Shown piece by piece: positions 2,547-55,920 of a stretch of DNA of 64,000 bases. How positions within the stretch are numbered: position 1 is the first letter of the stretch; each line of letters starts with the position of its first letter. The notes under the pieces were generated by a model that was not told the origin of the DNA, did no database searches, and saw only the letters and a list, made by a program, of their open reading frames with translations. The stretch is taken from the IMG/VR virus record IMGVR_UViG_3300048850_000049, positions 55,864 to 119,863 of that record, one strand, 5' to 3'. The stretch comes from a virus. Lineage: Duplodnaviria > Heunggongvirae > Uroviricota > Caudoviricetes. Position numbers and translations under genes: made by a program.

Positions 2547-4064
2547 ATGAACGCATACGACGCAGCGCGCCTGATCGAGGAGATCGGCGCAACGTCCTCT
2601 CGCACGGAGAAGGAACGACTGACCAAGATTCTCGCAGATGCCGAGATTGGGAAGTTCATCCTACAGTGGGCTTATAACCCCTTCATCACCTTTGGGCTCA
2701 ATCCTGCGCTCAGTGAAAACGCCGGCAAGTTCAAGATTGAATTCAAGCCGAGCCTGGTCGAAGGGCTTTTGAAGCGCCTGTCGTCGCGTGAACTGACCGG
2801 CCATGCCGCAGAACGCGAGGTAGGTGAGGTTATGGGCGCGCTAGACGAAGACGGCGCACGGCTTCTCTTTCTCATCCTGTCGAAGGACTTGAAGTGCGGC
2901 ATCGCCGAGAACACGATCAATCAGGCTGTGCCTGGTCTCGTGCCGGTGTTCTCCGTGCAGCGCGCCCAGACCTACGAAGCAAAGCGCATGACCAGTGTGA
3001 TGAAGGGCGAGTATAAGCTCGACGGCAATCGCAACACGTTTCTGTGCAAGGATAATGACGGTGGGTTCTTTACGCGCACCGGAAAGCGTGTCGCGGCTCT
3101 CGATTTCATGGTTCCTCCTGTCATCAAGGCTGCCAAGGCAGTTGTGCAGCAGTCGGAGCTCCTGCAGCGTGTCATGGTCCGCAAGGGCGAGACCACGCTC
3201 AACTTCATGCTGGACGGCGAAGCAATGATGACGCTGTTCGAGGAGACCGGCGCATTCAGGCGCACTTCCGAAGATGCTCTCGGAGCGGAGCTTCATCTCT
3301 ACGACATGATGTCCTTTGACGATTTCGATGCGCCTGGCGCCGTCGGTGAGATCCTCGAAGTTCGCCGCACCTGGGTTGCCGAGTTCGTAAGGCTCGCCAA
3401 GATCGCACTCGCCGGCACGAAGGAAGCTGAAGCCATTCAGATCGTCCCGCAGTTCTTCGTCAATGACGATGCAGAGGTCCAGGCACTGTTCGACAGGGCT
3501 CGTTCAAAGACGCTCGCATCCTATCTGGCTCGCGGCAATGCCGAGCGTGAGAAGGATCTTCTGACCAAGACGATCGATAAGGCAACCGGCAAGCCGAAGG
3601 TGCTCGAGGGGATCGTCGTCAAGGATCCGAAGGCCAAGTATGAGAAGAAGAAGTCCTGGGTGTGGATGAAGCTGAAGGCGGAAGAAACCCTCGACCTTCG
3701 CATCACTGGCGCTTATCCCGGCAAGCCGCACACCGAGCTCCAGGACACGTTGGGTGGTATCCAGGTGGTGCACAAGGGCGTTCCGGTCAATGTAGGCGGT
3801 GGATACGAACGTCCTGAGCGCGACGAAATCTGGGCCTTGTGGAACGAGGACCGTCTCAACGGCACGATCGAGATCATTAAGGTCGCAAACGGCAAGAAGC
3901 TGATCTCCTACAATCCGAACCCTGGTTATACGCCGAAGCTGGTGTCGCGCCTTCTCGAGGTCGAATTTATGGAAGAGACGCCCGACGGCTCGCTTCGTCA
4001 TCCTCGCGCCATTCGCTTCCGCGACGATAAAGACGGTGAAGTCGAAGTGAAGGAGGCTGCATAG
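2547..4064 (+). CDS. ATP-dependent DNA ligase
   Basis: Adenylation motif I KxDGxR (EYKLDGNR); motifs IV/V EGIVVKD and WVWMKLK; RBS AGGAGAA upstream. Confidence 0.75.
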   Translation: MNAYDAARLIEEIGATSSRTEKERLTKILADAEIGKFILQWAYNPFITFGLNPALSENAGKFKIEFKPSLVEGLLKRLSSRELTGHAAEREVGEVMGALDEDGARLLFLILSKDLKCGIAENTINQAVPGLVPVFSVQRAQTYEAKRMTSVMKGEYKLDGNRNTFLCKDNDGGFFTRTGKRVAALDFMVPPVIKAAKAVVQQSELLQRVMVRKGETTLNFMLDGEAMMTLFEETGAFRRTSEDALGAELHLYDMMSFDDFDAPGAVGEILEVRRTWVAEFVRLAKIALAGTKEAEAIQIVPQFFVNDDAEVQALFDRARSKTLASYLARGNAEREKDLLTKTIDKATGKPKVLEGIVVKDPKAKYEKKKSWVWMKLKAEETLDLRITGAYPGKPHTELQDTLGGIQVVHKGVPVNVGGGYERPERDEIWALWNEDRLNGTIEIIKVANGKKLISYNPNPGYTPKLVSRLLEVEFMEETPDGSLRHPRAIRFRDDKDGEVEVKEAA

Positions 4065-4873: not shown

Positions 4874-5974
4874 TCAATGAGCCCTCCTTCGCCGCATGTA
4901 TCTCACGACTTCGGCGAGGTCGATCTGCCCGCGTTCGATCATCCGGACGTAATTTCGGTAGTATCCGCCTGGATTCTTGATCTTCATCGGCCCCGCCTGG
5001 TCCGCGGAATAGATTTCAAGCACCACAAAGAAGGCCGCGGCCGCTCGCATCGGCCCAATTTTCTCGACAGCCTCATCCCAGGCACTCCGGTGTATCCCAA
5101 TCGCGCCTCGCAAACCGGCCGCGGCCGATAGAAGTTCTCTATCGTTGGTGATCGTGTCGGTGTAACTCATTGCATCAGGGCAGGCAGCGCACAAATCTGG
5201 CAAGTTGATTTCGGATTCATTATCTCTTTGCCGTTTGTCACAAGACTGGTCAGGAGAATCTTTGTTGTTCTCAATGAGACGGCAGTTTTTGCCGCCACAG
5301 GCGGCATTATATTGATCCTCAAGGGTAGTTTTCAGACTTTGCCATAGAGAAAGCACAGGCTCGACCGGCTGCGATGACGTTCTACGCGGGGAGAGGGCGC
5401 TCAATCGCTCAAATTCGATCGTGAGCGCGTTCATATCGATGTTCTGACCGAGTGCGTCAAGCGCGCCCAGAAGCTCCTGAGAAGCTCTCCTGCAGATCGT
5501 AATCTGATCGAACAGAGCCATCCGCGCTCGCTGCAACTCCCGGATCGCATCGGTGCGCGCCTGCAGCTCATCTTTACGCGCCAGGAGGGGGGAGAGATCG
5601 AAGCCATAGGCATCAAGAATCTGTCCCTGCTTTGAGCGCACAGCGAAACGTTTGCCATTGGCGCTGTCTCGTGCAAGCACGCATCCTGCTCGGATCAGTT
5701 CACCCACGGCATACCTGATCGCGCGGTCGGAGAGTCCCGTTCGGTCGGAAAGGAACTCGTTTGACGGCCAGACCAGGTAAAGCCCGTTGACCGGCTCGCG
5801 AAAGAACCCGACCAGCTGCGAAAGGATCGATCTTGCGGAAGGGCGCAGGCCAAGAGCAATGGCTGCCAAGTGCGCGCTTTCAAATAGATCCTTCTTGGTG
5901 CCGGCATCCTCCGGCACGTAGGTATCCGCTGCCGGCGCAACGCGGCGCCAGCCTGAATGTCCCTCAGTTCTCAC
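4874..5974 (-). CDS. RepC-like winged-helix replication initiator / DNA-binding protein
   Basis: WPSNEFLSDRTGLSDRAIRYAVGELIRAGCVLARDSANGKRF and AYGFDLSPL resemble RepC (repABC family) N-terminal HTH motifs as I recall them. Confidence 0.5.
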   Translation of the reverse strand: MRTEGHSGWRRVAPAADTYVPEDAGTKKDLFESAHLAAIALGLRPSARSILSQLVGFFREPVNGLYLVWPSNEFLSDRTGLSDRAIRYAVGELIRAGCVLARDSANGKRFAVRSKQGQILDAYGFDLSPLLARKDELQARTDAIRELQRARMALFDQITICRRASQELLGALDALGQNIDMNALTIEFERLSALSPRRTSSQPVEPVLSLWQSLKTTLEDQYNAACGGKNCRLIENNKDSPDQSCDKRQRDNESEINLPDLCAACPDAMSYTDTITNDRELLSAAAGLRGAIGIHRSAWDEAVEKIGPMRAAAAFFVVLEIYSADQAGPMKIKNPGGYYRNYVRMIERGQIDLAEVVRYMRRRRAH

Positions 5975-33370: not shown

Positions 33371-34315
33371 ATGTTCGCGAAGGTCGTGCTTGCAAGCAAG
33401 CCGACCAACGGCGCTCTGCCGCTCTTCTCAATCCACATGCACTATCCGGACATCATCCACGGCGAAGTGCTGACGCACCGGAAGTTTGGACGAAATGCCC
33501 GTTCCATGCGGGCAACGCCCATCAAGACCTTGCTCGAGGAGATCCGCAAGGATCCGTTTGTGCCCTGGCACTGGGGTAAGAACCAGAAGGGAATGCAGGC
33601 AAGCGAGGAAAACAACTCGTTGGTCTCTGTCCCGACCTTCAACGGCGGATGCGAGGATCTTACGCGGGAAGACGCATGGCTGCGTGGCCGTGATTTTGCT
33701 GCGATGGTTGCAGAAGGCTACGCGCTTTCCGACTATCATAAGCAGGTCGCAAACCGCATCATCGCGCCCTACACCTGGAAGCATACGCTGATCAGCTCGA
33801 CCAGCTGGGCGAACTTCCTTCATCTGCGCGATCATGAGGATGCCGAACCGCATTTCCACGATCTTGCGGCTTTGGTCCGTGAAGCTCTGGCCGGCGCACA
33901 GTTCCAGCTCCTCGAGCATGGCGACTGGCACCTCCCGTATGTCACTCCGCAGGAAAAGAAGTTCCACAGCCTCGACGTTTTGCGAAAGCTGTCCGTAGCC
34001 CGCTGCGCCCGTATCTCCTACGCGCCGTTCGACGGCAATCCGTCGGTCGATCGGGAACTTGAACGCTACGACCTTCTGGTTGGATCCTCACCGCTTCACG
34101 CTTCGCCCACCGAGCATCAGGCCACTCCGGACAGTCAGTCAACCTACCGGCTTCAGGTGAAGACTTTCGAAGGCGGAAATGGGTTCGATCGCTGGGAGAC
34201 TGTCTCGGAAGACAACAGCTGGAACCACTCCGATCTTTCCGGAAACTTCGATCCTGGCTGGATCCAGTTCCGCAAGACCCTTCCTCTCGAATTCATCAAG
34301 GATATAGCAGCATGA
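33371..34315 (+). CDS. Divergent ThyX-like (flavin-dependent thymidylate synthase family) protein with a C-terminal extension
   Basis: THRKFGRNARSMRA versus the ThyX RHRxxSxxxxSxRY motif, and SWANFLHLRDHEDAE versus ThyX NARSLMNFLNLRADSHAQ; AAGGA RBS. Confidence 0.4.
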   Translation: MFAKVVLASKPTNGALPLFSIHMHYPDIIHGEVLTHRKFGRNARSMRATPIKTLLEEIRKDPFVPWHWGKNQKGMQASEENNSLVSVPTFNGGCEDLTREDAWLRGRDFAAMVAEGYALSDYHKQVANRIIAPYTWKHTLISSTSWANFLHLRDHEDAEPHFHDLAALVREALAGAQFQLLEHGDWHLPYVTPQEKKFHSLDVLRKLSVARCARISYAPFDGNPSVDRELERYDLLVGSSPLHASPTEHQATPDSQSTYRLQVKTFEGGNGFDRWETVSEDNSWNHSDLSGNFDPGWIQFRKTLPLEFIKDIAA

Positions 34316-34569
34316 AGAAGTTCGCCCTTCTCGCGGCAGTTGCCGCAACCTCGCTCCTCGCCGGCTGCGGTGTGGATCCGGACAATGCTCGCCGCGCCCT
34401 GGAAGCGCAGGGCATCACCAACGTCCAGATCGGCGGACATGCCTTCTTCGGTTGCGACAAGAATGATCAGTTCGCGTCCAATTTCACCGGCGTCGGCGTC
34501 AATGGCAAGCCTATCTCCGGCGTTCTGTGCGGCGGGATCTTCAAGGGCATCACCGTTCGCTATGACTAA
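34312..34569 (+). CDS. Small lipoprotein
   Basis: Signal peptide plus lipobox LLAGC. Confidence 0.55.
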   Translation: MKKFALLAAVAATSLLAGCGVDPDNARRALEAQGITNVQIGGHAFFGCDKNDQFASNFTGVGVNGKPISGVLCGGIFKGITVRYD

Positions 34570-34768
34570 TCGCAGCGAGACTTCCTCCCACACCGCCTTT
34601 GAGATCGTGGAGCAGCGTAACGGCTTCCACTATCGCTGGCCCGCAGACGACGAGACCGCGCTTCTTCGCGGTCCCTTCCCCAATCGTGGCGCGGCTGAAA
34701 CCGCAGCCATGAAGACGATCGAAGAATTTCTAGCCGAAAGCGTCCTGTCGGCGTTTGGCATCAACTAA
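34562..34768 (+). CDS. Hypothetical small protein
   Basis: ATG overlaps the upstream stop. Confidence 0.35.
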   Translation: MTNRSETSSHTAFEIVEQRNGFHYRWPADDETALLRGPFPNRGAAETAAMKTIEEFLAESVLSAFGIN

Positions 34769-34780
34769 GGAGAATACAAA

Positions 34781-35251
34781 ATGGGCGGATCAACTTCCAA
34801 TATCTACATGGTGCCCTACCGGCTTTTGACGGCCTGGGCGAAGGCTCCCGCTTATAGCTCTGCCGAAGCTGCAGGCGCTGATCTTTACGCCGACCTCTCG
34901 ACTCTGGACACGGAACTCATGGAAACGACCATCCAGCCCGGCAAGCGGCTCCTGGTGAAGACCGGCGTCGCCATCGAATTGCCGACTGGATCCTACGCCA
35001 AGATCGAAGGGCGCTCCGGACTTGCTAACAAGCACGGCATCTGTGTCCTCGGCGGTGTGATCGACAGCGATTATCGCGGCGACGTTGGCGTCATCCTTCT
35101 GAACACCGGCGAAGAGCCGTTCACGTTCAAGCACGGCGACCGGATCGCTCAGCTGGTCATTCATCCCTATCTCGTCGGTCACTTTGAAGAAGCCGACGCG
35201 CTGACTCACAGCGATCGTGGTGCAGCTGGTTTCGGTTCCTCGGGGTCATAA
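34781..35251 (+). CDS. dut: dUTPase
   Basis: RSGLANKHGI, GVIDSDYRGDVGVILLN and RGAAGFGSSG dUTPase motifs. Confidence 0.9.
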   Translation: MGGSTSNIYMVPYRLLTAWAKAPAYSSAEAAGADLYADLSTLDTELMETTIQPGKRLLVKTGVAIELPTGSYAKIEGRSGLANKHGICVLGGVIDSDYRGDVGVILLNTGEEPFTFKHGDRIAQLVIHPYLVGHFEEADALTHSDRGAAGFGSSGS

Positions 35252-35871
35252 TGCTGTTCGGCTTGACCGGTTCCAGCGGCACTGGAAAGACCACGCTCGC
35301 AAAGCGGGTTGCAGAGGAATTGGGCATTACTTTCATGCCCACTTCTATCACTGAATGCGCCAAGCGGCATGGATTCGACGCAGTAGCGCCGATGACGATT
35401 CAGACGCGCATTGCCCTACAGATGAAGCTGCTCGAGGACCACGTTTCGATGGTTATGGATGCAGATCGTCCGCTCATCGTGGACAGGACGCCGATCGACA
35501 TGATCGGCTATCTGCTCGCGGAGATCGATATGCACTCCAATCATCGTATGCTCTCTGAGGATATCGTTGCGGCCGAGGAATATGTCGATCTTTGCCTCGA
35601 GACCACGGCGAAGCTCTACGACTACATCTTCGTCCTGGGCCAGCTGGAGCATTACGAGATCAAGGACAGTCGGCCGGCTAACAACCGCGCCTACCAGACC
35701 CATACCCAGCTTATCATGCAGGGTGCATTGAGCCGTCTGTGGGGCCGGGTGAACTTTTCGATCGTCCGCCAGCAGGAGCTGGAGATCCGTCACGAATACG
35801 TCCACGACGCAATCGTGAAGCGTATGGATGACATTTCTCGGGAAAGGGCTTCATCGGCTCACATTCACTAA
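35251..35871 (+). CDS. P-loop NTPase, predicted nucleotide/nucleoside kinase
   Basis: Walker A GSSGTGKTT at the N-terminus; sits inside the nucleotide-metabolism cluster. Confidence 0.5.
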   Translation: MLFGLTGSSGTGKTTLAKRVAEELGITFMPTSITECAKRHGFDAVAPMTIQTRIALQMKLLEDHVSMVMDADRPLIVDRTPIDMIGYLLAEIDMHSNHRMLSEDIVAAEEYVDLCLETTAKLYDYIFVLGQLEHYEIKDSRPANNRAYQTHTQLIMQGALSRLWGRVNFSIVRQQELEIRHEYVHDAIVKRMDDISRERASSAHIH

Positions 35872-35890
35872 CTTCCCGCGAACAACCTAA

Positions 35891-35945
35891 TGCGCTCCAA
35901 CGAGCGCATCGCTATAACTCTGAATGTAAGTAAGCACATACTGAC
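35891..35945 (+). promoter_or_regulatory. Promoter (TGCGCTCCAAC .. GCTATAAC) plus an imperfect palindrome
   Basis: Upstream of gene 36056. Confidence 0.45.
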
Positions 35946-36055
35946 AAGCACGAGGCGACAAACATGAGTTTACGTTTCGCACAGGCCGCGTTCGCCGCCT
36001 CATTCTGCTTCATTGTCGGTCTTGTTCTTTTTCAATTCTAATCCAGGAGCCATGA

Positions 36056-36478
36056 ATGCCCGATACAAACGACCAGAGTGCCGCTGAGGTGGTGAAAGTC
36101 GAACCGACGCTTGCCATTATCCGCGGTGAGCGTGAAGAGTCCGCTGCAGCCGCTGAGAAGGCTAAGGCTGAACGCGAGGAAAACTACCGTTTGCAGCTGA
36201 AGCGCTCCGCTTTGGGCCGCGTTTTCGACATGTCCCAGGACGTGGACAAGAAGCTCGCTGAGATCAAGGCGCAGAAGAAGCTCCTCAAGAGCTTGCGCGA
36301 TGATCTGGCCGCTGCCGAAAAGGACGAAAGCCTGACGGTTGGCGATCTGAATGTCCTGATCGATCGCGGCGTCGAAGCTGTATATGGGAGCAAGGTCCAT
36401 ACCGGCGGGATCGTTTTCAATCCGATTTCTATTCTTGCGCGCTCGCCGCTTGAAGATTTGGTCTATCGGGTTTCTTAA
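36056..36478 (+). CDS. Hypothetical coiled-coil protein
   Basis: AGGAG RBS; charged helical sequence. Confidence 0.4.
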   Translation: MPDTNDQSAAEVVKVEPTLAIIRGEREESAAAAEKAKAEREENYRLQLKRSALGRVFDMSQDVDKKLAEIKAQKKLLKSLRDDLAAAEKDESLTVGDLNVLIDRGVEAVYGSKVHTGGIVFNPISILARSPLEDLVYRVS

Positions 36479-36491
36479 CCGGTAGGCTTTG

Positions 36492-36538
36492 GAGATCCGG
36501 ACTAAAACGCCGGATCTTCTCTTCCGGGTAGCTCCCGG
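36492..36538 (+). terminator. Two hairpins (GAGATCCGG..CCGGATCTT; CCGGG-TAGCT-CCCGG)
   Basis: After gene 36056..36478, before the tRNA-like region. Confidence 0.35.
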
Positions 36539-36573
36539 TAATCAGCAGAACGAGAATTGATAGGGGTCGTTAC

Positions 36574-36641
36574 GCCCCGGTAGCACAGGGCCGTGCAGTG
36601 GTTGAAAGCCAAAGGTCGTGGTTCGACTCCACGCCGGGGAT
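36574..36641 (+). tRNA. tRNA-like element 1 (acceptor/D/T arms; no canonical anticodon stem found by eye)
   Basis: 6-bp acceptor CCCCGG/CCGGGG, U8A9, D-stem GCAC/GUGC, T-arm CGUGG-UUCGACU-CCACG. Confidence 0.35.
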
Positions 36642-36859
36642 GCCTATCAAGCCCGCAAGGGTGCTGTAAAACGAGGCGTCATAACCCACGCCTATCGTCT
36701 GCAAAGCCGGAGTAGCGCTCCGGCAACGAATAAAGATCGTGGCACACGGCAGTCCGCTCATTGCGATTGGAAGCCAGGTGCCCGTTCTCGAGCCCCTGCT
36801 TTGTATCGCGTTAGTCAGGCTAGTAGGTTCACCGTATGGGGACCGGCTCCGAGTTAAGT

Positions 36860-36990
36860 CCCGCCGCTCGAAGGCTAAAGGATGGACTGTTCGAAACGTC
36901 CTTCTGGTGCCAGGGGTGGCCCTAGAGAGAGCAAGTGACCAAGGCTCACGCAAGGCCAAGGTCCAAGAGGTTCGATTCCTCGGCGGGGCA
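36860..36990 (+). ncRNA. Structured RNA region with a tRNA-type T-arm (GAGG-UUCGAUU-CCUC); 5' boundary unresolved
   Basis: T-arm at 36966-36982 followed by 3' strand CGGCGGG; the only complementary 5' strand (CCCGCCG) lies at 36860, giving about 130 nt, which is too long for a normal tRNA. Confidence 0.25.
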
Positions 36991-37145
36991 TCACATTCGC
37001 CCGAATGGGCAAAAGTTTGAGGAAGTGGGGAGGTAGCGTGCTCCGCGGGATTTGAGACACTGATGCGCTTGTGTCTCTCGGCGAACAACCGCCCGCCCTC
37101 ATTACCGTCGGACGAACGGCCCTTCCCTGGGTCGCCGACGGTCAT

Positions 37146-37213
37146 GCTGAGGTCGTCTAGCTGGTTAGGACGCAACGTATACCGAAACGTGGGTTCGACT
37201 CCCACCCTCAGCC
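37146..37213 (+). tRNA. tRNA-like element 3 (7-bp acceptor, D-arm, T-arm; anticodon arm not canonical)
   Basis: GCUGAGG/CCUCAGC acceptor, D-stem CGUC/GACG with loop UAGCUGGUUAG, T-arm GUGGG-UUCGACU-CCCAC. Confidence 0.35.
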
Positions 37214-37227
37214 CAACCACACATCCC

Positions 37228-37285
37228 CTGCCGCATTCCACTTCGACATTTGCTACTTTGAGTAATCAGTAAGCACTTACTTAAC
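37228..37285 (+). promoter_or_regulatory. Promoter variant (CTGCCGCATTCCAC .. TGCTACTTT) plus palindrome AGTAATCAGTAAGCACTTACTTAAC
   Basis: Upstream of the lipoprotein gene 37301. Confidence 0.45.
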
Positions 37286-37300
37286 GAAAGGAATTCAGAC

Positions 37301-37543
37301 ATGAAGAAGTCACTTATCTCCGTCGGCGTGATGCTGGCGCTTAGCGCCTGCTCTACAACGGGTTTCCAGCCCAATGACAAATACGAGACGGTCGCCGGCT
37401 ATCCGTTCAAGACGAACCTGAGCTGCACGCGCACCAAGCCGGTCGGCCTGTTTGATCCCAAGTGCGACTATCCCCGTCTCGGCTTCAAGGGCTTCTCGCC
37501 CATGCCCGATTTCAGCGTCGGAAGTGGCGTCAGCGGCAGCTAA
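37301..37543 (+). CDS. Small lipoprotein
   Basis: MKKSLISVGVMLALSAC signal plus lipobox. Confidence 0.5.
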   Translation: MKKSLISVGVMLALSACSTTGFQPNDKYETVAGYPFKTNLSCTRTKPVGLFDPKCDYPRLGFKGFSPMPDFSVGSGVSGS

Positions 37544-37587
37544 GTCAACTGGCGCGCTCTTCGGGGCGCGCCACCCTCACTCATTAC

Positions 37588-37645
37588 CTACCGCATCCCA
37601 ACAATTGCTGCGCTATAACGATGTCAGTAAGTAGTTACTTAAGAG
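37588..37645 (+). promoter_or_regulatory. Promoter (CTACCGCATCCCAAC .. CGCTATAAC) plus palindrome CAGTAAGTAGTTACTTAAG
   Basis: Upstream of the GHKL ATPase gene. Confidence 0.55.
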
Positions 37646-37651
37646 GCACAA

Positions 37652-40018
37652 ATGCAGGTTTCCACAATCGCAGAGCTTGATACGCACGCCGTTATTGGCG
37701 GTGGGCAAGCCCAGGCTTTCGGAATGTCCGACAGCGCTGAATTCTTCACCGTTCTTTCCGACACCCTTTATCGCGACAAGAAGCGCGCCGTGATCCGCGA
37801 AGTGATCTGCAACGCCCATGATGCTCACGTCATGGTCGGTAAAACCGATGTGCCGCTGGAAATCACGCTCACCGAAAACGAGCTAACCATCAAGGATTTC
37901 GGGCCTGGCATCGCCAAGGACAAGATCGGTCCCGTCTACTGCGTTTATGGCGCATCGACCAAGGTCAAGGATGCAACTCAGACCGGTGGCTTCGGGCTCG
38001 GCTGCAAGGCGCCGTTTGCGTATTCCGACCACTTCACGGTTACGAGCTGCATCGATGGGTTCCGCACGCTTTGGGCGATCTCTCGCGGCGGGGCTGCAAC
38101 CGATGGTAAGCCGGACTTTCGTGCGATGGTGTCCGTGCCCTCGACTGAAACTGGTATCACCGTGTCGATCCCGCTCAAGAACAGCGGCGATGTGCAGGTG
38201 TTTACGACGCTCATCAAGGAAGTGGTCCGCAACGGCGGGATGCTCGCCAAGCTCAATGGCGAACGCCTGGAGCGCTTCGACTACACCGAGGCTCGCAAGA
38301 ATGGTTTCGCAATCGCACCGCGCGGCAGCTACTCGTCATTCCGCGAGTCCCGCGTCTATCTGCTCTACGCGACCGTTCTCTATCCGGTTCTGACGACCGA
38401 TGAAGAGATTATGGCGAAGGTCGACGATTTTGACCGCCTGATCGAAAGCAATGGCCGCGCTGTGCTTATTGCCAAGCCGAACACGATTGGCGTGCAGCCC
38501 TCGCGTGAAGGTCTCTCCTACTCCGAGCTGACGACCGGCACGCTCCACTCTCTGCTCGATCAGGCGATCGCGACGTTGAAGGCGACTGGCCCTCTCATCG
38601 CTCGCAAGATCGTTCGGGCACATGCCAGGTCGATAATGAAGGATCGTTACGCCCTTACGGTCTCATCGCCCACGTCCTCCAATACGCCCTGCCGTGAATT
38701 GCTGTCGGATCCCAAGGTTATTGCTGAACGTGCCGTCCGGGAGCGCCTGTCCAACTACCTTCCGGACGCGCAACGCAGGAAGATTGCGATAAGCGAGATG
38801 GCGAAGAAGTTTCGTGATGATCGCCGCATTTTCAGGCGCGGCGCGGCCGACTATCGGTTCAACCTGGAACGAGAGCGGTTCGATCACTCCCGAAGGCTGA
38901 TTTTGCGCCTGGCTTCGAAGGCAGACGTTCTCGACAACGTGGTTCTTTTCACGAAGGATTCCGGTTACGTCCGCTGGGTAGGTTCCAAGATCGATGAAAA
39001 GCGCTTCAATCGCCCGATGATCCAGCGCTTGATTATCGGACCTTCTCGCAAGCTGGTCGATGAACAGCTTCGCAAGGAGTTCGATAGCAAGAGCCGCTCC
39101 GCCTATGACGATCAATCCAGCGACATCATTCCGGCTCTCATTCTCAACGCGCCGAGCGAGAAGCTGCTTATGTCAGTCCTTGAGATTGCAGAAGCTCTCA
39201 AGATCCCGACGACGCTGTTGGAATTTCCGAAGCGCAAGAAGTCGGCCAAGATTGGTGATCTGTTCACCGGACTGCTCGACCTTACGCACAATTCCAAAAA
39301 CTACACCTGGCGCGCGGTTAAGGCGAATGTGAGTGAGCCGAAGCACTATATACGCGCCTACGGCACGCAGGAGCGCCTTGAGCTAGGTTTTGCCCGTTAC
39401 AGCGAGGACAAGTCCGCGTTCAAGAAGATCGAGAATATGTTTCCCGGCACCGTCGTCGCCTGGACCGTCAAGCAAGAAGCCAAGTTAAAGTCGAAGGGTA
39501 TTCCGAACCTCGACGTGGTGATCGCTAAGGAGCTGAAGGCGCTCGAAAACAGCCGTGAGGTTCAGTATGCGACGATGATGCAGGGTGGTCACTTCATCTC
39601 CTCGCAGGAGTATCGTCACTCCATCTCCGGCAAGATTGCAGTTATGTGTTCGCAGTCCCTGACCATGTGCAAGTTTTTCTTCCCCGATCGCGCCAAGTTG
39701 GGCGACAAGACCGATCGTTTGCACAAGCTCTGCGAAATCGCCGGCATGATCGGCAATGAACGTGGCTATGCGTGTCCAAATGGCACTATCGCCCGCGAGA
39801 CGATGAAGAATATCGCAACGAAGGCGAAGATCACGTTCAAGGACATGATTATGGATAGCAGGGCGGTCGAAAAGAAGTTCGACTACATGCGACTGATCGC
39901 CAACATCAATTACAGCCCGGCCGATGACGAGCAGATCCTCGGCCTCATTAAGTTCCTCGCCAAGCAGGCGAAGGCTGCCTCATCTGCAAACACTGAAACC
40001 CAGAAGGAAGCTGCATAA
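37652..40018 (+). CDS. GHKL-family ATPase (HATPase_c-like N-terminal domain), 788 aa
   Basis: N-box VICNAHDA, G1 KDFGPGI and G2 TGGFGLG motifs at the N-terminus; long uncharacterised C-terminal region. Confidence 0.55.
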   Translation: MQVSTIAELDTHAVIGGGQAQAFGMSDSAEFFTVLSDTLYRDKKRAVIREVICNAHDAHVMVGKTDVPLEITLTENELTIKDFGPGIAKDKIGPVYCVYGASTKVKDATQTGGFGLGCKAPFAYSDHFTVTSCIDGFRTLWAISRGGAATDGKPDFRAMVSVPSTETGITVSIPLKNSGDVQVFTTLIKEVVRNGGMLAKLNGERLERFDYTEARKNGFAIAPRGSYSSFRESRVYLLYATVLYPVLTTDEEIMAKVDDFDRLIESNGRAVLIAKPNTIGVQPSREGLSYSELTTGTLHSLLDQAIATLKATGPLIARKIVRAHARSIMKDRYALTVSSPTSSNTPCRELLSDPKVIAERAVRERLSNYLPDAQRRKIAISEMAKKFRDDRRIFRRGAADYRFNLERERFDHSRRLILRLASKADVLDNVVLFTKDSGYVRWVGSKIDEKRFNRPMIQRLIIGPSRKLVDEQLRKEFDSKSRSAYDDQSSDIIPALILNAPSEKLLMSVLEIAEALKIPTTLLEFPKRKKSAKIGDLFTGLLDLTHNSKNYTWRAVKANVSEPKHYIRAYGTQERLELGFARYSEDKSAFKKIENMFPGTVVAWTVKQEAKLKSKGIPNLDVVIAKELKALENSREVQYATMMQGGHFISSQEYRHSISGKIAVMCSQSLTMCKFFFPDRAKLGDKTDRLHKLCEIAGMIGNERGYACPNGTIARETMKNIATKAKITFKDMIMDSRAVEKKFDYMRLIANINYSPADDEQILGLIKFLAKQAKAASSANTETQKEAA

Positions 40019-41572: not shown

Positions 41573-42187
41573 GTGGAGAATGCAGTGACCATCACCATTC
41601 CTGATCGCGAATTCAAGTCCTTCGAAAAGATCAACCGCGCCAAGACCGGCTTCGGTTGTGTCATGACCGAGAAGCTCGACGGTTCAAACGCCCAGATCCT
41701 CATCGAGGACGGCAAGATCGTCGGCGTCGGATCCCGTCAGCGCTGGATCAAGCCTGGTAAGGAACACGACAACTTCGGATTTGCCGCCTGGGTTGAGCGA
41801 AACGAGGAAGAACTCCTCCGGCTCGGCGACGGCGCTCACTTCGGTGAATGGTATGGGTCCGGCATTCAGCGCGCATACGGTCTGACTGGCGGTGACAAGC
41901 GCTTCGCTCTGTTCAACACGGGTCGCTGGTCAAACGATGAGATCCGCCCTGCCTGCTGCGAATGCGTGCCTGTCCTGTTTGCCGGCGAGTTCACTCGCGA
42001 GAACGTCAACATGGTCATGCGGAATCTCGCCGAAGAGGGTTCGCGCCATGTGCCCGGTTTCATGCGCCCCGAAGGAATCGTCATTTTCATCCCTGGCTCA
42101 CGTTCGCTCCTCAAGGAAACTTTCGAGTTCTCCGACGGCAAGTGGAAGGCCGATAACGCAAATGCCTCAGCTGTCGCTGTCGCTTAA
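41573..42187 (+). CDS. Rnl2-like RNA ligase nucleotidyltransferase domain protein
   Basis: Motif I TEKLDGSN, motif III HFGEWYGSGIQ (compare T4 Rnl2 FGEFAGPGIQ), motif IV EGIVIF; GTG start. Confidence 0.6.
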   Translation: MENAVTITIPDREFKSFEKINRAKTGFGCVMTEKLDGSNAQILIEDGKIVGVGSRQRWIKPGKEHDNFGFAAWVERNEEELLRLGDGAHFGEWYGSGIQRAYGLTGGDKRFALFNTGRWSNDEIRPACCECVPVLFAGEFTRENVNMVMRNLAEEGSRHVPGFMRPEGIVIFIPGSRSLLKETFEFSDGKWKADNANASAVAVA

Positions 42188-42196
42188 GGAACAATC

Positions 42197-42880
42197 ATGA
42201 CGATCACTCACCGTCACAGCGGCATCAACACCCCGACGACGGCTCCCGTCGCCACTGGTCGCGGACCTTACATGCACTCCTCCAACGGCCGGAAGATTTA
42301 TCCGTTCGATCCGCGCCCGGAGGAATTGAACATCAACGTGATCGCGCACCACCTGGCCTGCAATAATCGCTGGAACGGCGCAACGCAGCACAAGCGGTTC
42401 AAGTCGCGCATCTCCTTCTCCGTTGCAGAGCATTCGGTCCTGGTCGCAAGGTATATGGTCGAACACCTGAAGCGTCCTGACCTGGAGCTGGAAGCGTTAA
42501 TGCACGACGCACCGGAATATCTCCTTTCTGACATGATCCGGCCGATCAAGCACGATCCGCGCGTCTATCCGGTTTACAAGCCGCTTGAAGACAGGGCCGA
42601 GAAGGTGATCGCTGAGCGGTTTGGCCTGATCTATCCGCTTCCGCCCGAGGTCAAGATGGCTGACGAGGCTGTCTGCGCGGCCGAGGCCATTCAGATCGTT
42701 CCCAAGGATGAGCGCGACGAATGGATCTCCGGCAAGATGCACGATGATAGCCGGGTTGCTCCTTACGAAATCCAGATGCTCGGCGCCTACGCCGCGAAGG
42801 AATTGTTCCTGGTCGCCTATGAAGAAGCCATTCGTCGCCGGCCTGACTTCCACATGCTTCCGTCTTCTGTTGAGCTATAA
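42197..42880 (+). CDS. HD-domain phosphohydrolase (YfbR-like 5'-deoxynucleotidase family)
   Basis: H..SVAEHS ... LMHDAPE HD motifs. Confidence 0.6.
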   Translation: MTITHRHSGINTPTTAPVATGRGPYMHSSNGRKIYPFDPRPEELNINVIAHHLACNNRWNGATQHKRFKSRISFSVAEHSVLVARYMVEHLKRPDLELEALMHDAPEYLLSDMIRPIKHDPRVYPVYKPLEDRAEKVIAERFGLIYPLPPEVKMADEAVCAAEAIQIVPKDERDEWISGKMHDDSRVAPYEIQMLGAYAAKELFLVAYEEAIRRRPDFHMLPSSVEL

Positions 42881-55722: not shown

Positions 55723-55920
55723 CTATTCCTGGCTGATCGGGAAGACTTCTGCGCCGACGAAGAACGCCTCTCTCAATATCTGATCGAGGTTAACTTCGCT
55801 CGCCTCGAGAAACTGGACTACATCAAAGGAGTATTTCCTTTGCGCAAAGTGATGTTCCACGACATTAAGAACAGCAGCCCTCAATTCAGTCAGCTGCCCT
55901 TCAAATTCACACCTATGCAT
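55723..55920 (-). CDS. Small hypothetical protein, paralog of 54475..54684
   Basis: ATGCAT start with an AAGGAAAA RBS; shares a terminator with the convergent + gene. Confidence 0.4.
   Translation of the reverse strand: MHRCEFEGQLTELRAAVLNVVEHHFAQRKYSFDVVQFLEASEVNLDQILREAFFVGAEVFPISQE

Follow-up and report, generated by a model that had tools for sequence, protein, structure and literature searches.

A phage RNA island with tRNA look-alikes lacking a canonical anticodon arm, and their possible use as RNA-processing handles

Bacteriophage T4 carries, among its tRNA genes, two small stable RNAs that are not tRNAs, RNAC and RNAD, whose roles are still unknown; tRNA-like genes, tRNA genes of undetermined identity and unexplained small RNAs of phage tRNA regions are an already known kind, of which the T4 RNAs are examples (PMC3014915, PMC9697503). 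A 64,000-nt stretch of a Caudoviricetes genome (IMG/VR record IMGVR_UViG_3300048850_000049, positions 55,864 to 119,863; this whole stretch is called the window) contains a phage RNA island of the sort usually named a tRNA region, at 36480-37300. It resembles the T4 region in having small non-tRNA RNAs among phage tRNA genes on the same strand. The two differ in that T4 has eight working tRNAs and its RNAs have been shown to be expressed, whereas the window has no working tRNA and its island RNAs are predicted from sequence; no sequence relation to RNAC or RNAD is expected. New in the present locus are a family of tRNA-like RNAs with a selectively dismantled anticodon arm, a three-way-junction (3WJ) RNA family outside all Rfam 15 families, and the link of the latter to small RNAs associated with DUF3800 genes. 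With about even confidence, the island is read here as co-transcribed, its non-decoding tRNA look-alikes serving as cutting handles for RNase P and RNase Z.

Exactly three matches to the T-loop consensus GGTTCGANTCC lie in the window, all on the + strand and within 583 nt, at 36620, 36969 and 37192; shuffled sequences give a mean of 0.22 matches per window, and 0/100 shuffles reach three. A preliminary description, made from the letters alone, had already listed three T-loops and placed the first exactly; the positions that it gave for the others, 36970 and 37193, are corrected here. The outer two T-loops belong to 68-nt units, elements 1 and 3 (Table 1). Element 1 has an acceptor stem GCCCCGG/CCGGGGA with six of seven pairs and a terminal G1-A72 mismatch, a 4-bp D stem (GCAC/GUGC) with a 6-nt D loop, and a T arm CGUGG-UUCGACU-CCACG with a 5-bp stem. 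In element 3 all seven acceptor pairs are formed (GCUGAGG/CCUCAGC), the D stem GUCU/GGAC belongs to a D arm, UCGUCUAGCUGGUUAGGACGC, which we take to resemble that of tRNA-Glu, and the T arm is GUGGG-UUCGACU-CCCAC, also with a 5-bp stem. In both units the acceptor, D and T stems agree with the original description.

All damage falls in the ~25% of each unit that makes up the anticodon arm. Outside it, 16/16 stem pairs are intact in element 3 and 15/16 in element 1, and both units have G18G19, U8, A14 and the UUCGAnU T loop. Canonical tRNA has 22-23 nt between D stem and T stem; element 1 has 20 nt there and element 3 has 17 nt. The anticodon arm of element 1 is reduced to GUGG/CCAA, with three Watson-Crick pairs in four positions and the loop UUGAAAG; an alternative fold of this middle part has 5 bp and a GAA triloop. 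In element 3 a 17-nt linker, GCAACGUAUACCGAAAC, for which no pairing is predicted (0.0 kcal/mol), takes the place of the anticodon arm and variable loop. None of elements 1, 2 and 3 has the canonical 5-bp anticodon stem with a 7-nt loop bearing U33 and a purine at 37. An antisense function for the element 3 linker and the loops of element 2 was considered and rejected: the window holds two 12-nt complements (24926 and 43195), neither of which ranks top in window-wide duplex energies.

ARAGORN calls element 1 as a 68-nt tRNA-Phe(GAA), with a 7-nt loop containing U33 and A37, and makes no call for element 3. The tRNA ancestry of both units is shown by their exceeding the gathering score of 29 bits of the Rfam tRNA model, RF00005: the alignment of element 1 (34.8 bits) lacks 2 nt in the anticodon arm, and that of element 3 (41.3 bits) has 10 nt at this arm in place of the 15 of the model. 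These scores appear only with relaxed filters; a whole-window Rfam search at the gathering threshold with default filters returned nothing, and routine annotation would therefore miss both elements. Elements 1 and 3 are tRNA-derived, with every defect in the anticodon arm. ARAGORN, RF00005 and the segment fold thus agree with the preliminary description of 68-nt tRNA-derived units that have acceptor, D and T arms and no canonical anticodon arm. Ordinary cloverleaf tRNAs, which that description had proposed to look for with such programs, are not returned: the tRNA-Phe call is made on three Watson-Crick pairs and element 3 is left uncalled.

The window is related to Rhizobium phages (rIIA DNA identity up to 81%), its relatives being RHph_X66 (X66), B1VFA and RHEph10. 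Relatives of element 1 occur in four related phage genomes (Table 1); a pattern scan of IMG/VR for further members of the family found only three contigs that were already known. In an alignment of eight sequences, comprising element 1, its relatives and element 3, pairing in the acceptor, D and T stems is 93.7% and 13/16 pairs change on both sides; 0/500 shuffles reach this level, and no slid register comes near it. Compared with its nearest ortholog (L050 3612-3680), element 1 is 100% identical in the T arm, 89% in the D arm and only 43-50% in the acceptor strands, with flanks 78-84% identical; 4/4 changed acceptor pairs are compensated, and the G1-A72 mismatch is kept, as it is in three members of the family. 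The anticodon loops of the seven members are UUGAAAG, CUUGAAA, UAUGGAG (A33), UUUCAGAG (8 nt), CCCAGAA and CCCUGAA (both C33), and a GACG tetraloop on a 6-bp stem. Only one of these is canonical and, counting the shortened stem in the window and the five odd loops, 6/7 members have a non-canonical anticodon arm. The tetraloop copy (L050 4625-4701) retains an encoded CCA. The tRNA-Cys(GCA) genes at the same loci have perfect, fully canonical anticodon loops. In B1VFA-like phages these tRNA-Cys(GCA) genes are 87-88 nt long with a long variable arm, which is unusual for tRNA-Cys (L024 2583-2669, L013 344-430, L050 3911-3998); those of X66 and L005 have the normal short form. Element 3 occupies the position of tRNA-Cys(GCA) in X66, L005 and L024, and no similar element was found in IMG/VR, where a gapped pattern made for tRNA-Glu-like bodies in which the distance from D to T is shortened had 0 hits.

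The middle T-loop closes element 2, a predicted 133-nt tRNA-shaped RNA that begins 5-8 nt past the end of the 3WJ. Its fold comprises an 8-bp acceptor stem, GUCCCGCC/GGCGGGGC (36858-36865 with 36982-36989), a D-type stem GCUC/GAGC that encloses a ~55-nt branched insertion, a long arm of 4 bp, an AA/AA internal loop and another 4 bp with the loop CACGCAA (A at position 33), and a T arm GAGG-UUCGAUU-CCUC (36967-36981). The same fold is obtained in isolation (z -1.99) and in the minimum free energy (MFE) and centroid structures of a 504-nt region. No homolog covering the full unit was found; the match to L005 is limited to its T arm and trailing hairpin. At E up to 10, element 2 matches no Rfam family save mascRNA (RF01684), at chance level; tmRNA (transfer-messenger RNA), group I intron, RNase P, 6S and Y RNA were considered for this middle segment and dropped, with no Rfam match at that threshold and no ARAGORN tmRNA.

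Three described systems share parts of this architecture. In the mascRNA/MALAT1-type module, a cloverleaf look-alike that has acceptor and T arms but a non-functional anticodon region lies directly 3' of an RNA whose end RNase P makes, a position like that of element 2 relative to the 3WJ. The module is eukaryotic, and the RF01684 score of 14.9 bits against a gathering score of 42.5 makes this an analogy, not a homology. The tRNA-like domain of tmRNA likewise has an acceptor stem, a T arm and D-loop elements and lacks an anticodon arm, and a permuted tmRNA sits in the same genomic slot of the metagenomic locus L056; the island differs in that it gives no tmRNA model match, no G3-U70 pair and no ARAGORN tag frame, and in that elements 1 and 3 keep the full D stem. 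In L056, a distant relative with 43% rIIA identity, the permuted tmRNA is of the alphaproteobacterial type (RF04321, 105.8 bits, L056 1944-2220) and is followed by tRNA-Asn, tRNA-Met and tRNA-Thr (L056 2269-2506), directly upstream of rIIA, in the slot that the island takes up in the window. YrlA (RF02553), also found in phages, is a non-decoding RNA that mimics tRNA with T and D arms. The ends of YrlA lie on the anticodon side, whereas those of the island elements form the acceptor stem, and at E up to 10 neither 34000-38000 nor 36640-37150 matches RF02553.

The 3WJ came to attention through BLAST matches of window positions 36787-36855 to B1VFA and Mesorhizobium phage Cp1R7A-A1. Its P1 helix, GAGCC/GGCUC, pairs 36790-36794 with 36845-36849; P2, CCUG...CAGG, pairs 36795-36798 with 36816-36819 and is followed by the junction CUAGU; P3 is a near-invariant hairpin, AGGUUCACCGUAUGGGGACC, at 36825-36844. 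The exact pattern of this hairpin, AGGYYCACCGUAUGGGRRCC, occurs once in the window, at 32 IMG/VR loci and at 25 genome loci, mostly of Alphaproteobacteria. In most phage copies P1 encloses a variable P2 hairpin and the invariant P3 hairpin, which are linked by a short junction (AUAAU or AUANCCAA). A MAFFT alignment of all 3WJ types together was structurally inconsistent, hence the covariance model R1 was built from eight copies of one subtype and the remainder was aligned by Infernal. R1 gives 23 full-length matches among the phage loci and finds the window copy at full length (model positions 1-69, 34.2 bits, E 1.6e-6). Across 25 distinct sequences, in an alignment itself fitted to R1, 7/7 P1 pairs and 3/4 P2 pairs covary and 95.6% of cells are paired. 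Rfam 15 has no family for the window copy, eight phage loci or twelve chromosomal loci, and a literature search for the hairpin sequence returned unrelated primers only. A repeated phage promoter, suggested by a TTGACA-N17-TATGGG frame around the conserved 20-mer in Cp1R7A-A1, was rejected: the 20-mer is single in the 64 kb, a scan for promoters was negative, and the helices on either side covary. A likeness of the hairpin to a type I-F CRISPR repeat may be noted; it plays no part in the readings below.

All cultured phages in which the hairpin occurs have alphaproteobacterial hosts (phages of Rhizobium, Mesorhizobium and Rhodobacter, and seven Brevundimonas jumbo phages). In phages the 3WJ often adjoins tRNAs on the same strand (Table 1). 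In an unrelated phage tRNA array, the 3WJ comes after an element of ~95 nt that has a 6-bp terminal stem, contains two T-arm-like hairpins and encodes CCA (L038 3325-3421); the element is called by neither ARAGORN nor Rfam and, to judge from its sequence, is a further aberrant tRNA look-alike beside a 3WJ. Another 3WJ subtype lies between replication genes and HNH-TerS-TerL genes. A role as a processive antiterminator like put of phage HK022, which consists of two stem-loops of ~70 nt (PMC9378689), came to mind from the untranslated tRNA arrays and the site upstream of late operons and was set aside, there being no sequence relation.

In bacterial chromosomes the hairpin is part of a stand-alone small RNA, ~75-90 nt long, which has a promoter of the CTTGAC-N17-CTATTTT type to itself, followed by one short hairpin, the invariant hairpin and an intrinsic terminator. 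Thirteen such loci were compared (L064 3405-3500 on the - strand, L066, L068, L072, L073, L075, L076, L078, L079, L084, L088, L033 and L046), and in 11/13 the small RNA is convergent with, and abuts, a DUF3800 (PF12686) gene. The DUF3800 proteins at these loci are 51-76% identical across genera, except for a near-identical Mesorhizobium pair (L066/L088). An integrase gene and tRNA-Ser lie near the small RNA of L064, a locus of Rhizobium sp. YTU87027, and an open reading frame (ORF) beside that of L068 matches BrxC/D.

How might these parts work together? The proposed model starts from what the sequences show, namely the anatomy of the units and their descent from tRNA, the conserved structure in the element 1 family, and which loci belong to the 3WJ family and where they occur; it adds transcription, cleavage and product activity as its inferred steps. 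The island would give rise to one untranslated precursor, which would then be cut up by host tRNA-maturation enzymes. The three T-arm units appear to keep the acceptor/T-arm stack and the D/T elbow, the features read by RNase P, RNase Z or 3' exonucleases, and the CCA-adding enzyme, and to have lost the 5-bp anticodon stem and 7-nt loop required by the ribosome; with this loss, the units would be non-decoding tRNA look-alikes. Most likely they would act as punctuation, defining and stabilizing the ends of the RNAs between them, and would in turn remain as stable small RNAs of tRNA-like form. This is clearest for element 2: given the short distance at which it follows the 3WJ, an RNase P cut at its 5' end would make the 3' end of the 3WJ RNA. 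The use of the units as handles is favoured because the tRNA shape is kept where processing enzymes read and lost where the ribosome reads. It is in keeping with the clustered T-loops, the ancestry indicated by RF00005, the compensated stems, the varied anticodon loops beside canonical tRNA-Cys(GCA) genes and the encoded CCA of the tetraloop copy. The same holds for the position of phage 3WJ copies next to tRNAs, where chromosomal copies have a promoter and a terminator instead, and for the aberrant CCA-ending element that precedes the 3WJ of L038. The preliminary suggestion of processing punctuation or a mimic would fit these findings as well.

Several points weigh against the handle model. 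L050 3612-3680 has a regular 5-bp anticodon stem and the 7-nt loop CUUGAAA, and because this nearest ortholog has a regular anticodon arm, the window copy of element 1 could be a recent casualty of decay, as far as sequence comparison goes. An encoded CCA is missing from all three window elements. Covariation among paralogs attests to past selection, not necessarily to present selection. Fold z-scores are modest, -1.3 to -2.0, and the predicted structures of elements 2 and 3 come from one sequence each, as neither has a homolog. RNase P requires just an acceptor/T-arm minihelix, so that punctuation alone does not explain why the D arm and the elbow are retained. Expression and cleavage of the island RNAs are themselves predictions of the model.

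The main rival, and a serious one even if on balance unlikely, is that the tRNA region is in turnover and that elements 1-3 are decaying tRNA genes, pseudogenes without present function. The slot of the island differs in each relative, being empty in RHEph10-type phages and otherwise filled with tRNA or tRNA-like genes that number from one to several, with two units in X66 and five or more in L050. Decay would also account for the departure of element 1 from its regular ortholog by small deletions and one broken pair, for the lack of homologs of elements 2 and 3, the latter at the site of a good tRNA-Cys in the relatives, and for the lack of an encoded CCA. It does not sit well with damage that is confined to the anticodon arm, with all other stem pairs but one, the T-loop consensus, G18G19, U8 and A14 intact in elements 1 and 3; with full compensation of the four acceptor pairs that differ from L050 in a setting where the flanks are well conserved; or with non-canonical anticodon arms being the rule in the family.

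Quite unlikely, though compatible with several features of the locus, is that the look-alikes are decoys that soak up a host factor, one which binds or attacks tRNA by way of the elbow or the acceptor end; a tRNA-directed defence nuclease and a toxin acting on the 3' end by modification are examples, and processing would only be how the decoys are made. Conservation is highest in the elbow formed by the D and T arms, whereas sequence changes freely in the acceptor and anticodon helices, which stay paired nonetheless. The retained G1-A72 mismatch would suit such a role, as would the RNA ligase and HD-type phosphohydrolase genes 4.4 kb downstream; anticodon nucleases are known to press on phage tRNA evolution (PMC10264068). 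On the other hand, no candidate target was identified, and it is the anticodon loop, the very part missing here, that known defence nucleases directed at tRNA mostly recognize.

That the units are real decoding tRNAs with unusual arms, element 1 reading UUC/UUU for example, is very improbable. The ARAGORN call with its 7-nt loop, U33 and A37 and the RF00005 scores of both units above threshold speak for it. Yet the anticodon stem of element 1 has the three pairs described above in a segment 2-3 nt short, element 3 is without any anticodon hairpin, and the nominal anticodon is different in each of five orthologs (GAA, UGA, UCAG, CAG and CUG). The copy with a Ser anticodon has no long variable arm, which bacterial seryl-tRNA synthetase requires, and the G1-A72 mismatch would be expected, by analogy with initiator tRNA, to disfavour EF-Tu binding.

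Two further alternatives are hardly credible. A minus-strand ORF of 223 aa (36570-37241) is open across the whole island, and a public gene call places a 216-aa protein there (L061 3515-4165) on Logan contig SRR35925424, the sole other contig of the source phage, identical to the window across 6,423 compared bases; the ORF was rejected as a gene, since it has no Pfam match above noise, overlaps two sequences of the opposite strand that score as tRNA, has only + strand neighbours and no counterpart in the homologous segments of B1VFA, and would be broken by the 1- and 2-nt gaps in the alignment with L050, the closest relative. Long spurious antisense ORFs are usual at 56% G+C, which is about the value of the window, and the public call looks like an annotation artefact. 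Three + strand ORFs in the island have no Pfam match either, so that the flagged stretch of ~700 bases is non-coding as far as tested, as the preliminary description had it. An equally improbable explanation is a tmRNA gene, standard or permuted, or an intron-interrupted tRNA gene that would account for the middle T-arm: this arm is far from any obvious 5' half and L056 provides a precedent for a permuted tmRNA, but ARAGORN and the Rfam searches described above find none, the acceptor stems have C3-G70 or U3-A70 in place of G3-U70, and the 8-bp acceptor stem of element 2 closes locally into the 133-nt fold.

For the product of the cleavage proposed in the handle model, the chromosomal small RNAs provide the best lead. 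DUF3800 is an RNase H2-like domain of unknown role that occurs as a retron type VII partner and in association with Cas12a, and eleven dissimilar RNA motifs have been linked to it (PMC7736814, PMC10910872, PMC5737381). The invariant hairpin and the two-hairpin layout of the 3WJ recur in the DUF3800-convergent alphaproteobacterial small RNA, which may be a further RNA type of this kind, and DUF3800-I, one of the motifs DUF3800-I to XI, has the same general plan of an outer stem around two hairpins and then a terminator (Weinberg et al., 2017, PMC5737381). The best Rfam score, to DUF3800-I, is 15.2 bits against a threshold of 44.2 and was obtained on a chromosomal copy, the window copy giving none; moreover, the phage copies lack a nearby DUF3800 gene, have a longer P1 closure, and have tRNA flanks instead of a promoter and a terminator. 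Neither tblastn nor a custom hidden Markov model detected a homolog of DUF3800 in the 64-kb window, or in the flanks fetched for any phage locus with a P1-closed junction; PADLOC has no model for the DUF3800 protein.

Phages are known to deploy RNA mimics against RNA-dependent defences, as with pseudo-ToxI against ToxIN and the RNA anti-CRISPRs. A doubtful proposal is that the island is an RNA-only counter-defence cassette: the 3WJ would be an orphan copy of the small RNA that partners DUF3800 in rhizobial and other alphaproteobacterial genomes; freed from a tRNA-like precursor by means of anticodon-less tRNA handles, it would titrate or mis-program a host DUF3800 system. Such a role would make the 3WJ a mimic comparable to pseudo-ToxI and the RNA anti-CRISPRs. 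The likeness, that of a phage-borne orphan copy of the RNA partner of a host protein system, would be one of concept only, and it differs in that DUF3800 and its RNA have no established defence or toxin role.

The remaining features of the island and its surroundings are collected in Table 1. All neighbouring genes are on the + strand, like the island itself, which lies between a 140-aa ORF and a small lipoprotein-like gene, followed by rIIA. The terminator scan returned no + strand terminator at the hairpin that follows the 140-aa ORF. Hairpin UUCGCCCGAAUGGGCA stands a few bases after or before tRNA or tRNA-like genes in all four phages (the window, L005 ~3213-3224, X66 L001 ~4889-4900 and L050 ~4004-4015) and may, from its recurrent position, be a processing or protective signal. 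A ~90-nt conserved structured module is common to B1VFA-like phages and L050 (L024 2105-2200, L013 180-275, L050 4157-4242), with a long closing stem around ...GGAGCCCUGGCC...GAUAUCACUGGC...GCCAGAGGGGUAUA...; it is not in the window. The RNA ligase gene (PF09414, 41573-42187) and the HD-type phosphohydrolase gene form a pair after rIIB that spans 41573-42880; X66 has the same pair, which by its domain content may concern RNA repair. On the - strand, at the junction between + strand ORFs, ARAGORN calls a 78-nt tRNA-Trp(CCA) at 34358-34435. This is probably a false positive: at E up to 10 Rfam reports no tRNA at this site, and the fold departs from the cloverleaf and lacks the T-loop consensus.

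Table 1. The island, its neighbours and related loci. Positions are those of the window unless a locus is named; L numbers are locus handles of this analysis.
Feature	Position	Strand	Description and basis
Upstream genes, in order		+	Ribonucleotide reductase, dUTPase, P-loop NTPase, 140-aa ORF (36056-36478)
Hairpin	36491-36519	+	10-bp stem GGAGAUCCGG/CCGGAUCUUC, 9-nt loop, directly past the stop codon of the 140-aa ORF, without a proper U-run; read from sequence
Second small hairpin	36524-36538	+	CCGGG-UAGCU-CCCGG; read from sequence
Leader before element 1	36537-36573	+	84% identity to L050 3575-3611
Element 1	36574-36641	+	68-nt tRNA-like RNA; ARAGORN, RF00005, family covariation, segment fold
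Spacer hairpins H1-H3	36642-36724	+	78% identity to L050; all in the region fold
H1	36651-36662	+	GCCC-GCAA-GGGU; in L050 as GCCGC-GCAA-GCGGC
H2	36674-36693	+	AGGCGU-loop-ACGCCU
H3	36706-36724	+	GCCGGAG-UAGCG-CUCCGGC; also in B1VFA, L013 283-305
3WJ RNA	36788-36852	+	65 nt; covariance model R1, P1/P2 covariation, MFE fold agrees
Element 2	36858-36990	+	Predicted 133-nt tRNA-shaped RNA closed by the middle T-arm; single-sequence fold
Small hairpin	36999-37010	+	GCCC-GAAU-GGGC (UUCGCCCGAAUGGGCA), 9 nt past element 2
Spacer with two predicted hairpins	37054-37143	+	GAGACAC/GUGUCUC at 37054-37077, long stem at ~37106-37143; region fold, without comparative support
Element 3	37146-37213	+	68-nt tRNA-like RNA; RF00005, linker fold, position relative to relatives
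Downstream genes, in order		+	80-aa lipoprotein-like ORF (37301-37543), rIIA (37652-40018), rIIB, RNA ligase (PF09414), HD-type phosphohydrolase
Element 1 relative	L050 3612-3680		Nearest ortholog; within a 192-nt stretch 80% identical to the window
Element 1 relative	L050 4252-4321
Element 1 relative	L050 4625-4701
Element 1 relative	L005 3135-3205
Element 1 relative	L024 1847-1916
Element 1 relative	X66 L001 4730-4799		Unannotated there
3WJ beside tRNA	L021		4 nt after tRNA-Pro
3WJ beside tRNA	L026		4 nt after tRNA-Leu, 18 nt before tRNA-Thr
3WJ beside tRNA	L070		2 nt after tRNA-Ala
3WJ beside tRNA	L041		7 nt before tRNA-Asp
3WJ beside tRNA	Rhodobacter phage RcXuper		Fills the 86-nt gap between tRNA-Asn and tRNA-Cys

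When tRNA calls in phage tRNA regions are odd or undetermined, they tend to be dismissed as noise. Default Rfam filters missed all the elements described here, ARAGORN found only element 1, and the public gene call puts a spurious 216-aa protein in their place. DUF3800-associated RNAs have been without a functional hypothesis since 2017, and an orphan copy in a phage makes one testable by ordinary genetics; if true, the counter-defence proposal would give the eleven-plus RNA motifs their first functional context. As for the look-alikes, a family that keeps all the features read by processing enzymes and drops the anticodon arm points to the use of tRNA shape as a cutting handle or a decoy, not as an adaptor.

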